64,000 nt of DNA from Paraspadella gotoi (GCA_051294375.1 CM119263.1:10562703-10626702), one strand, 5' to 3'. Positions 34,675 to 37,600 are shown, counted from the stretch's first letter. Notes: generated by a model not told the origin, from the letters alone. Program-made: numbers and translations.

Positions 34675-37600
34675 TCAGACTTGAGTCAAATTCAAATGGT
34701 GAATTTCTTCGTCTCTCGTCGGACGACGCATGTGGAAGTATTCGAGGAGATTTTGGGCGACGCCGCTGTCGAAGGGATTGTGGAATTCGCCCCGGGCGTC
34801 TTTGAGGTATTCGTATCTCCTGTAGTTGATTCGCTCGTTGGTCGTAATGTTCTTTGCCGCCATCCAAAACTGAAAATGGATGACCGATTTCAATTTTAAA
34901 ATATCACTTTTACATGTCAACGTGTTTTCTTTTGATGAGTTTTTAATCAAATTTATACAATTTAGTCTCATTCTAATTGTTTCGTATTGGCTTTTAATAA
35001 AGTTAAGTACACCGTAATCATAAAATCACAATAAGGCAATAAAGAAGTCGGACAAAAATTATTAAAAACAATTTTTAACTTACCAATCGTCTCAATAAAA
35101 TTCTACGAAGGATCAGAAACTCACCTTCCTTTCACACCGGCGCCATTAAGCAGTTTTCTTTTCTCAGAATTTGAAGTAAATTAAATCATTCGCCCATTAT
35201 CCGTCTGCGCCTGCGCCACCTTTTTTCGGCGCCATTATAAACACCCCCCCTCCCAAACACTCACGCTGGCGCTCCCAACGCAGAAGGCCATAGTGGCGAA
35301 GGCGAGAAGGAGAAGGGAGGCGGCGACGATCCAGAGGGCGCCGCCTTCCACGAGCAACAGTTCGTAGGCGAAGTAAAAAGCGATGGCGCCCGACGCGTTC
35401 GACGTCAGCAGGAAAAGCAGAAACCAGTGGCTGTGGTTGCATGTGCGACGTGTTTATGGACGTATGGCGTACGATATGGGTGTGGCGAGCCGGAATGGAG
35501 GCAAAGTTGTGTGGATGTAGGATAATAAAATTTGAAATAGGCGCGTGATAAGAAATAAGTAGCCGCGTTTAAAAAAAGGGATAGCGTGAAAGTAGAAAGA
35601 GGAAAATAAGGATTTCTCGCATAATATTTCTTTAAACTTTTTTATTACTGATATTCTCGCTGAAATGAAAGTTTAAGGCTTAAAAATTTTAAAAACTAAT
35701 TTAAACGGTGGTCAGGCGTTTAAAATTAAAAAAATATGTATATATCATACTGAAAAATTAGAGAGTAAAAACATAAGAGAAAATAAAAATGAAATTGAAA
35801 AATAGAAATCATACAAATGAGGTCAAAAAAGAAACGAAAAAGGCAAAAAGGACACGATTGTTTCCGCTGTGATCACGTCTTTCACACTTACCTTTTCCCA
35901 TGGCAGTTTTAAAAGGCCTCCACAGACTTACCTTATTTTACAAAAATTAAGAACTTATTCGTTTAAGAATTTTTTTTTTTACGAGGAGACCCTACCGCGA
36001 CTGTGGAGAGGCCAAACGTCATGAGGAAGAAGAGGCCAAGGAAGACGAGGCCAAAGGCGACTGGCCACGACGTCTCGATGTTGAAGGTGAAATCGTAAGC
36101 GAAGTAAAATCCGATGAGGCAGTTGATGGACACGGCGGTGGTGAAGGCGAGAAAGTGGCTCCTTATGGTGGTTGAGATGGTTGTGGTGGTGGGCGAAAGT
36201 GGCAAAGAATTCCGCGATTCGTAGAGAGAAATCGTTCATTGTAGAAACAAAGATTTTATGGGATGGAAAATTAACAAAAACAAAAATCGAAACTAAAATT
36301 AACTAAATGAAAATAAATAAAAGAAAAATTAATAATCTCATAATATGACCACCTCGAGCTCTAGATTTAAAAAGAATAGAAATGAGTATTTTAAAATAAA
36401 AACTTTAACAAAAGAACCCAGCCAATTTAATTATTGTAGTGAAATGTGATCGCAGCTCTCACCGATTCTGGTGACCGACGCAGTTGTAGATGTAGGGGCA
36501 GTGATGATCGAATTCTTTGACGCACCGATTGCAGACCTTGCAGTGTTTGGACCGCAGAGGGCGCACCAGGCGGCAAGTGTGGCACAAGCGGCTCAGGGGG
36601 TTTTTCGCACCAGTTTGTTTCCAATCCTGAAAGAAAAGCATGGCATAAGTTGAGATTGAAGGACTGATTGTCTTCAAATAATGCTGTATATGAATGTCAT
36701 AAAAACGGCCTTGCGGTTTGCACGTTAATAAGACAAGAGGCCTGATCCCACATCTGTAAGTTTTACCATCTTTTTGCCATCTTGTTATATTTTAATACTA
36801 TTAAACTATTATAACCTGGTGATACGCGACCGATTGCACAGCTCGTTCGTATTCGTCGGTGTTAAGAGGCAAAAACCCCGGGTCGGTGTTTTTCGAATGA
36901 TAAAGGAAGAACCACATGAGAAAATTAAGGAAAAGGAAAACCAAATGCAGAACTTGATTTTGGTAAAACATCACTGGGAGAACCTGAGAAAATGATTTGA
37001 AAAACAAATTATATCATTGATAGAAAATATATGACAAAAAAATATAATATTTTTGTAATACCTTGTAAAAATAAACGGGATATCCCCACAACAACAACGA
37101 AGTAACGAAAAACAAAAGGCCCCATCGACTGTTGCCGGCCGGACCGAAGATCAGTGTTCTGCGGTGGGATAGAGCAGGGAAGAAAATAGGAGAGGATCAC
37201 GGGGAAGGAAGAAAAAGGGAAAAAAATGTATTTAGTATCATTAAATTCATTGTGACATAATTTTTGAATATTTTGTATCATGTAATATTTTATCTTCTGT
37301 GAGTCAAAAACCAAACTTATAATTAAAAATGAGTACATATAGAGTATATTTTGTGAAAAACAAATCCATCTACTGGTTCGAATATGGTGAAAAGAATTTA
37401 CGCTCACGAATCGATAGCATTACCCAATTTAGATTTCGTTTTACAAACTTTGAGTAATTGAATTTTACAGCTCCTAGTGTAAACAAAACGCAAAGATCTT
37501 TGTTTGAGCCAATTTTTTATATGAAATTGGTACAACCAGTGTAAAAATTATCCATTCATTTAATAAATAAGCTATCTTGCCCCAGACTAAGGACAGGCTC

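Follow-up and report, generated by a model that had tools for sequence, protein, structure and literature searches.

Duplicated exons encode two, very probably mutually exclusive, versions of the TM3-TM4 segment in a Patsas-type palmitoyltransferase gene of Paraspadella gotoi

A palmitoyltransferase gene of Paraspadella gotoi carries two paralogous exons of 166 nt, here named A and B, which constitute a genuine duplicated exon pair for the TM3-loop-TM4 part of the protein. Exon A is spliced, exon B looks, from its sequence features, like a maintained exon, and we consider it very probable that the two are mutually exclusive. The gene lies on the minus strand of the window, the 64,000-nt stretch that was analyzed (GCA_051294375.1 CM119263.1:10562703-10626702), and was reconstructed as a 12-exon model from 51513 to 34675, which encodes a Patsas-type ankyrin-DHHC protein with both the DPG and the TTxE motif in its translation. 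The transcript support comes from one contig-level run, presumed to be RNA and designated X1, whose contig lacks four of the introns. The exons of the model are as follows.

51275..51513, minus strand: exon 1, coding part, with the ATG at 51513 and a low-complexity N-terminus; outside the X1 contig cover and predicted from the open frame, the GT donor and the 570-aa frame
49771..50800, minus strand: exons 2-6, ankyrin repeats, predicted from AG/GT borders and open frame (exon 2, 50800-50659; exon 3, 50479-50398; exon 4, 50302-50184; exon 5, 50099-50036; exon 6, 49904-49771)
44589..44731, minus strand: exon 7, last ankyrin repeat, with AG/GT borders; its 3' end is matched by the loose sequence with which the X1 contig stops at 37158
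37062..37158, minus strand: exon 8, TM1 (by homology to abalone models), spliced in the X1 contig
36816..36983, minus strand: exon 9, TM2 and DPG motif, spliced in the X1 contig
36463..36626, minus strand: exon 10, DHHC cysteine-rich domain (Pfam DHHC, PF01529, E 1.8e-18), spliced in the X1 contig
35996..36161, minus strand: exon 11A, version A of TM3-loop-TM4, 166 nt, phase 2 to 0, joined in X1 to exons 10 and 12; profile E 1.7e-9
35265..35430, minus strand: exon 11B, version B of TM3-loop-TM4, 166 nt, phase 2 to 0, with AG/GT borders and open frame; profile E 4.7e-7
34675..34869, minus strand: exon 12, coding part, with the end of TM4, the TTxE motif and the stop; covered by X1 contigs, in which the 3' UTR runs on unspliced to about 34002

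An earlier inspection of this DNA from its sequence alone (the sequence-only reading) had proposed a pair of equally long exons in the same phase, and the AG/GT borders, coordinates and profile matches all agree with this proposal; the last exon, which had been placed near 34870, indeed lies there, with its start refined to 34869. The two copies, separated by a 565-nt intron, align without gaps at 13/55 amino acids (24%) and 71/166 nucleotides, a score that was equalled by 2 of 100,000 shuffles, and thus the expected combination of gap-free alignment and high divergence was recovered; within the lumenal loop not a single residue is identical. Inclusion of either A or B alone results in a protein of 570 aa, whereas joint inclusion (707 aa) or skipping of both (509 aa) leads to a frame shift in the last exon, as had been anticipated. 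When the 1960 ORFs found in the window were searched with a profile built from 60 orthologous segments, only A and B were recognized (the next-best match has E 0.28), and neither score was reached in 2000 shuffles. Exon B is the more divergent copy, with the longest branch of the window (1.82 in the segment tree) and a score on the family profile of 27.9 bits, which sits near the low end of the range of real orthologues in a leave-one-out comparison (n=60; from 11.0, median 51.4). The maintained state of B is suggested by its open frame, canonical splice sites, family-profile match and a GC3 of 0.82, identical to that of A, against an intron GC of 0.31-0.34. The upstream flanks of the two exons have no detectable homology (128 of 500 shuffles scored as well), and Pfam recognizes neither A alone, nor B alone, nor the last exon alone. 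A combined profile of A and B found nothing among 1.84 billion protein representatives at E 0.001 and gave no close relative, and the search of the protein representatives with the last exon likewise found none. A third copy of the segment in the window was rejected on the basis of the profile search, as was a second copy of the last exon, which is single-copy there.

Several other features were observed in the same window. A fatty-acid elongase gene (ELO/GNS1-SUR4; 42300-43560, plus strand; Pfam E 1.9e-26) is nested in antisense orientation in intron 7 of the palmitoyltransferase gene, probably by chance. The same intron contains, at 37520-37590, a short dispersed repeat matched at very high depth by hundreds of X1 contigs with unrelated flanks. 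A type I polyketide synthase gene (16041 to about 23500, plus strand) has one 2000-codon open frame (16461-22460) that covers KS, AT, DH, methyltransferase, ER and the start of KR, and is unusually intron-poor for this genome. Exons of a sodium:solute symporter (SSF) gene are located at about 27500-30000 on the minus strand, and coiled-coil exons, for which Pfam gives weak coiled-coil matches alone and which presumably resemble a myosin heavy chain tail, at 1-4300 on the minus strand. A 759-codon acidic, proline-rich ORF with an internal repeat (58214-60490, plus strand) has no Pfam match, nor do the ORFs at 11437-13600 where tested.

Most of the 90 proteins retrieved with the DHHC exon have the ankyrin-DHHC architecture and come from molluscs, cnidarians, deuterostomes and arthropods; some of the cluster members and matches carry the source name Patsas. 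The protein of our gene model is 42-45% identical to four source-named Patsas proteins and 48-49% identical to the mollusc and annelid orthologues. The DHHC domain, the DPG and TTxE motifs and four TM helices, the latter taken from abalone models, indicate a zDHHC S-acyltransferase. AlphaFold models of two Haliotis rubra isoforms fold as DHHC domains with four TM helices each (mean pLDDT 87 and 84), and in each of them the swapped stretch (residues 420-474 and 420-476) takes in TM3, the lumenal loop and the greater part of TM4, in line with the initial assignment of the exons to TM3-TM4. The ankyrin fold matches 3eu9 and 5w7i in a fold search, which was saturated by ankyrin matches and yielded no overlay on zDHHC20. 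The initial family label, HIP14/Patsas, holds for its Patsas half: ankyrin repeats combined with a 4-TM DHHC domain, together with the closest named relatives, point to a Patsas-type gene. Membership in the HIP14/HIP14L (ZDHHC17/13) group, which has the same ankyrin-DHHC architecture, was rejected because both orthologue models have four TM helices, whereas six are predicted in ZDHHC13/17 according to PMC8059564. The Drosophila Patsas protein is described as a Golgi enzyme needed for the fusion of lysosomes and secretory granules (PMC12795455), and reportedly does not use the substrate motif of Hip14 (PMC9374236). Patsas orthologues among the 120 matches listed come from sharks, coelacanth, bony fish and amphibians, with no amniote, and this gap among the matches listed questions the view of Patsas as the fly orthologue of HIP14L. 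In tunicate and lamprey copies of Patsas, DHYC replaces DHHC.

The X1 contig joins exons 8, 9, 10, A and 12 with canonical ends and skips B; isoform A is thus spliced. The junctions around A that had been predicted at 36463>36161 and 35996>~34870 are present as 36462>36160 and 35996>34869, whereas the two predicted for B (36463>35430 and 35265>~34870) do not occur in this single contig-level run. No junction containing B was found among the X1 contigs, which drop rare forms and were partly filtered, and this result is counted neither for nor against its use; the sole X1 match to exon B is a 37-nt piece of low identity that is loose at either end. B is likely expressed in this species, where it would replace A in other cells. 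The introns flanking B are matched by unspliced X1 contigs at 34841-35233 and 35571-35989, and the three introns upstream of A are nearly uncovered; the unspliced contigs possibly reflect slow splicing of the region, or DNA.

The search for both exons in relatives, which the sequence-only reading had suggested, gave a positive result. We examined 30 protein clusters and tallied 30 hand-picked loci with at least two listed isoforms, leaving out entries with a single isoform as well as the second locus each of Dreissena and Mya; the isoforms are database gene models judged without their reads. Two or three versions of the TM3-TM4 segment are present in 21 of these 30 orthologous loci, comprising 20 mollusc loci and one annelid locus (Owenia, with three versions). 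Clean swaps with a common last exon were found at 10 of the 30 loci, namely in four Haliotis species, Gigantopelta, Biomphalaria, Littorina, Patella caerulea, Owenia and Mytilus galloprovincialis. The remaining 11 multi-version loci are all bivalve and couple the swap to an alternative last exon, so that 11 of the 12 bivalve loci listed have the swap solely in this coupled form. One version only is listed for Octopus, Tubulanus, Ptychodera, Apostichopus, three chelicerates, Nematostella and Ciona (9/30), although such listings cannot prove absence. In the pairs checked, the prefix and the suffix are identical between isoforms, and the two forms of a locus have 6-20 identical residues of about 57-60. 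Each version is conserved between species, with 51/55 and 54/57 identical residues within Haliotis and 25/55 and 26/57 between Haliotis and Patella. Thus, isoform A is spliced, B is intact, and the orthologue isoform pairs swap exactly the same segment, and the proposal of mutually exclusive TM3-TM4 exons is supported. Such swapped isoforms are already present in public annotation, where they have gone unremarked. In bivalves and some pulmonate snails, the last exon is also duplicated and is usually coupled to the second TM3-TM4 exon (P0002/P0099, P0018/P0013, P0115/P0010, P0026 and others), and in these cases the entire C-terminal third of the protein is swapped.

Gene models with tandem copies have the Trp-type (W) copy first and the S copy second (Mytilus coruscus, two Elysia and two Biomphalaria). 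In a tree of 62 segments, from which Lampetra was left out as its motif was not parsed, all 17 S exons, the annelid one included, fall on one side of a branch (support 90/85, not starred). The S exons form one clade, and therefore a duplication before the mollusc-annelid split is indicated; the lophotrochozoan W/S swap looks ancient on this sequence evidence. The mollusc-annelid split dates to the Cambrian. The relation of the A/B pair to the W/S pair is less clear-cut, with AU p values of 0.46 for S grouped with B, 0.39 for S with A and 0.34 for A with B. A common origin is favored because the order of the copies is compatible with it and because three residues that mark S exons are present in B. 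One of them is Gly at C+26 (counted from the catalytic cysteine), which occurs in 16/17 S exons and in 0/19 W exons. An independent origin is favored because A and B are both 55 aa long (17/17 S exons are 56-60 aa), because both score higher on the W than on the S profile (20.3 versus 13.2 for B) and because they have a 21/24-nt stretch in common; both also are without the Asp-Tyr motif of the lumenal loop. On balance, we lean slightly towards an origin of A/B independent of the W/S pair.

The sequence-only reading had ascribed weak pyrimidine tracts to both exons. The acceptors are indeed weak; however, they are poor in U rather than in pyrimidines, with 3 (A) and 2 (B) U per 17 nt compared with 4-11 for the other 10 acceptors of the gene. 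The following candidate elements were identified around the two exons.

36162..36290, minus strand: AG-free zone before exon A, 129 nt, U-poor, with 7 YCAY in the last 80 nt
35431..35613, minus strand: AG-free zone before exon B, 183 nt, U-poor, with 6 YCAY in the last 80 nt
35883..35934, minus strand: two consensus donor-like motifs after the weak donor of A (GT at 35931 and 35891), candidate decoy or alternative 5' splice sites
35078..35127, minus strand: two consensus donor-like motifs after exon B (GT at 35124 and 35083), candidate decoys
35866..35888, minus strand: element pairing with the exon-10 donor region (36462-36436) at about -22 kcal/mol, which would loop out exon A

YCAY clusters bind Nova/Pasilla. 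At least 7 YCAY occur in 0.11% of 80-nt windows (composition shuffle p 0.011 for the zone of A) and at least 6 in 0.24% (p 0.046 for the zone of B), and the other acceptors of the gene are preceded by 0-3 per 80 nt. The AG-free zones elsewhere in the gene span 17-83 nt, except that of exon 8 (133 nt), which shows that a long zone also occurs outside the A/B pair. The two introns after A and B contain four donor-like motifs, spaced by 40-41 nt within each pair, against zero in the interior of the gene's remaining 10 introns; the expected number is 0.1, and the count is post hoc. The pairing with the exon-10 donor, also found post hoc and matched in strength by 3 of 223 control windows, is a weak lead for the looping-out of A. 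Predicted RNA duplexes between 10 region pairs were not accepted as evidence, the three that beat all 25 shuffles all involving one G-rich stretch after B, and the inverted repeats are mostly AT-rich chance matches. Downstream of exon B there are two copies of an 11-nt motif (35227-35237 and 35138-35148); its 10-nt core is otherwise absent from the window, and the motif shows partial complementarity to a site around 35390 within exon B.

Junction-dependent NMD needs a stop upstream of the last junction. It would not remove the wrong products here because double inclusion and skipping alike place the stop in the last exon, which in its 3' part is unspliced, and NMD-enforced exclusion was rejected. 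We also rejected steric exclusion of the OGDH type, in which a distant branch point lies within about 50 nt of the donor of the upstream exon (PMC7969005); it does not fit A/B, for which the 565-nt intron and the 183-nt AG-free zone place the expected branch point about 380 nt from the donor of A. Exclusivity is therefore likely set by regulated weak splice sites and not by steric clash or NMD, with U-poor acceptors, long AG-free zones, YCAY clusters and downstream donor-like decoys as the elements that would enforce it; these elements come from a single species and are partly post hoc.

Taken together, we propose a model in which the Patsas-type gene would hold two intact TM3-TM4 exons, with A spliced and B skipped in the transcript set seen, and in which other cells would take B in place of A to make a second form of the enzyme. 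Both forms would be active, judging from the kept DHHC and TTxE motifs and the residues equivalent to Phe171/Phe174; the Phe171-equivalent position (C+15) is Phe in 60/60 orthologous segments as well as in A and B. The lipid-facing TM3-TM4 surface and the lumenal loop would meet substrate helices or an accessory subunit, and the second version would consequently act on different membrane proteins or partners, with a shift in acyl-chain length as a possible second effect. That the swap mainly alters this substrate or partner surface is, in our judgement, about an even bet, and we rank it ahead of acyl length. Two published observations bear on such surfaces: TM3 of DHHC9 contacts GCP16 (bioRxiv 10.1101/2022.12.12.520165), and fly Patsas is reported to be biased to transmembrane substrates (about 80% of the S-palmitoylated interactors in its group; PMC9374236).

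The same exclusive splicing could instead serve mainly to change the preference for acyl-CoA chain length or saturation, as between zDHHC3 and zDHHC7, which we consider possible but rather doubtful as the main effect. TM3 is a documented determinant of acyl length in zDHHC3/7/20. In the zDHHC20 cavity, as described in PMC9006032, Trp158 and Phe171 lie at the mouth, and Ser29, Tyr181, Val185 and Leu213 close the end; the exon carries the equivalents of Phe171, Tyr181, Val185 and Leu213, and the Tyr181Ala substitution favors longer chains. At the Tyr181-equivalent site, Ile in zDHHC3 versus Ser in zDHHC7 is held to explain the use of C16 versus C18 (PMC8059564; PMC9913408; PMC11471619), and exon B has Ser at this Tyr181/Ile182-equivalent site (C+25), like the C18-preferring zDHHC7. 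Moreover, C+22, C+25 and C+26 are all smaller in B, the volume of C+21..C+27 is 646 cubic angstrom in B versus 874 in A, and the Gly at C+26 described above marks B together with the second-type exons. Against this stands the residue of A at C+25, Asn, which is already far smaller than Tyr or Ile and is kept at this position in both forms of Owenia, Mya and Dreissena. In addition, the Tyr181 and Val185 sites together amount to 174 (A) and 178 (B) cubic angstrom; for the three cap sites the sums are 234 in A and 266 in B, compared with 500 in zDHHC20. No gap interrupts the alignment to 6BML between DHHC and the Tyr181 site; the Val185 and Leu213 sites were mapped by counting, not by structural overlay. 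Across the orthologue pairs the cap volume is larger in the second form in 7/9 cases and smaller in 2/9. The prediction that B has a roomier cavity is only half borne out, by Ser at the Tyr181 site and the smaller C+21..C+27 stretch; the proposed direction is not supported, and a simply roomier B was rejected, since its cap-site sum is not smaller and the orthologue pairs go both ways. An acyl-chain effect of the swap is possible, and a change in membrane substrates or partner surface appears at least as likely as an acyl-chain switch.

It is improbable, in our estimate, that both exons are used with the same specificity and that the swap mainly changes turnover, stability or location at the Golgi, ER or cell surface, or makes B a low-activity regulatory form. 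Such a role would agree with the published contacts of TM3 and TM4 with the PaCCT motif and C-terminal helix, against which they are packed (PMC8059564), with the coupling of the swap to an alternative last exon in 11/12 bivalve loci, where the cytosolic tail changes too, and with the lack of identical residues between the lumenal loops; however, either form retains the catalytic residues and those of the cavity mouth, and there is no direct sign of inactivity. Still less probable is a vestigial exon B that is unused in this species, with isoform A alone made. The sole transcript contig skips B and its branch is the longer one; yet B is an old copy (24% identity) with exact length, phase, splice sites, open frame, GC3 and aromatic residues kept, and second copies persist across molluscs and an annelid. 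A bolder and tentative proposition, to which we give somewhat less than an even chance, is the following: since the early Cambrian or before, several lineages, once or repeatedly at the same exon, may have used splicing to rebuild half of the acyl pocket and the membrane face, giving tissue-specific enzymes with different fatty-acid and substrate preferences. If true, it would provide a natural domain-swap series, with up to three versions per gene, to decode zDHHC specificity.

The choice of fatty acids and membrane substrates by zDHHC enzymes is partly known, chiefly from point mutants and comparisons of paralogues. In no fewer than 10 species, TM3-TM4 is exchanged while the rest of the enzyme stays the same; the swap offers ready-made controlled pairs for testing these helices, and would add splicing as a means to regulate the specificity of S-acylation. 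Swaps of duplicated exons are, according to three reports, often ancient, tissue-specific and convergent (PMC9741552, PMC8373072, PMC7969005), and for ACOX1 three origins of the swap have been reported, one of them in molluscs. The main texts of two human catalogues of such swaps name no DHHC gene, and a literature search, with supplements and subscription journals outside its scope, found no earlier account of exclusive exons in Patsas/zDHHC genes. Thus, the kind of event is well known, whereas its occurrence in this family, and at this size, seems to be new, and a long-lived, possibly convergent exon swap would be added in a gene family that is missing from the human-centered catalogues searched.

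The closest known relatives, Drosophila Patsas (CG6618) and the orthologues in other animals that are named "probable protein S-acyltransferase 23", likewise combine ankyrin repeats, four TM helices, DHHC and TTxE; however, the orthologues of arthropods, deuterostomes and cnidarians have one TM3-TM4 segment in 7/7 listed multi-isoform loci, while the P. gotoi gene has two. The tandem duplicated exon substitutions of ACOX1, KHK, OGDH (4a/4b) and calcium channels likewise exchange paralogous exons of equal phase within one fold. The two 55-aa regions of ACOX1 keep 28 residues, whereas A and B keep 13. The position of TM3 that differs between zDHHC3 and zDHHC7 and corresponds to Tyr181 of zDHHC20 is the same, relative to the catalytic cysteine, as the one that differs here (Ile versus Ser there, Asn versus Ser here). 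The zDHHC3/7 difference lies between two genes and has been measured, whereas the one described here lies between two exons of one gene, extends over two whole helices at 24% identity, and is read from the sequence alone.
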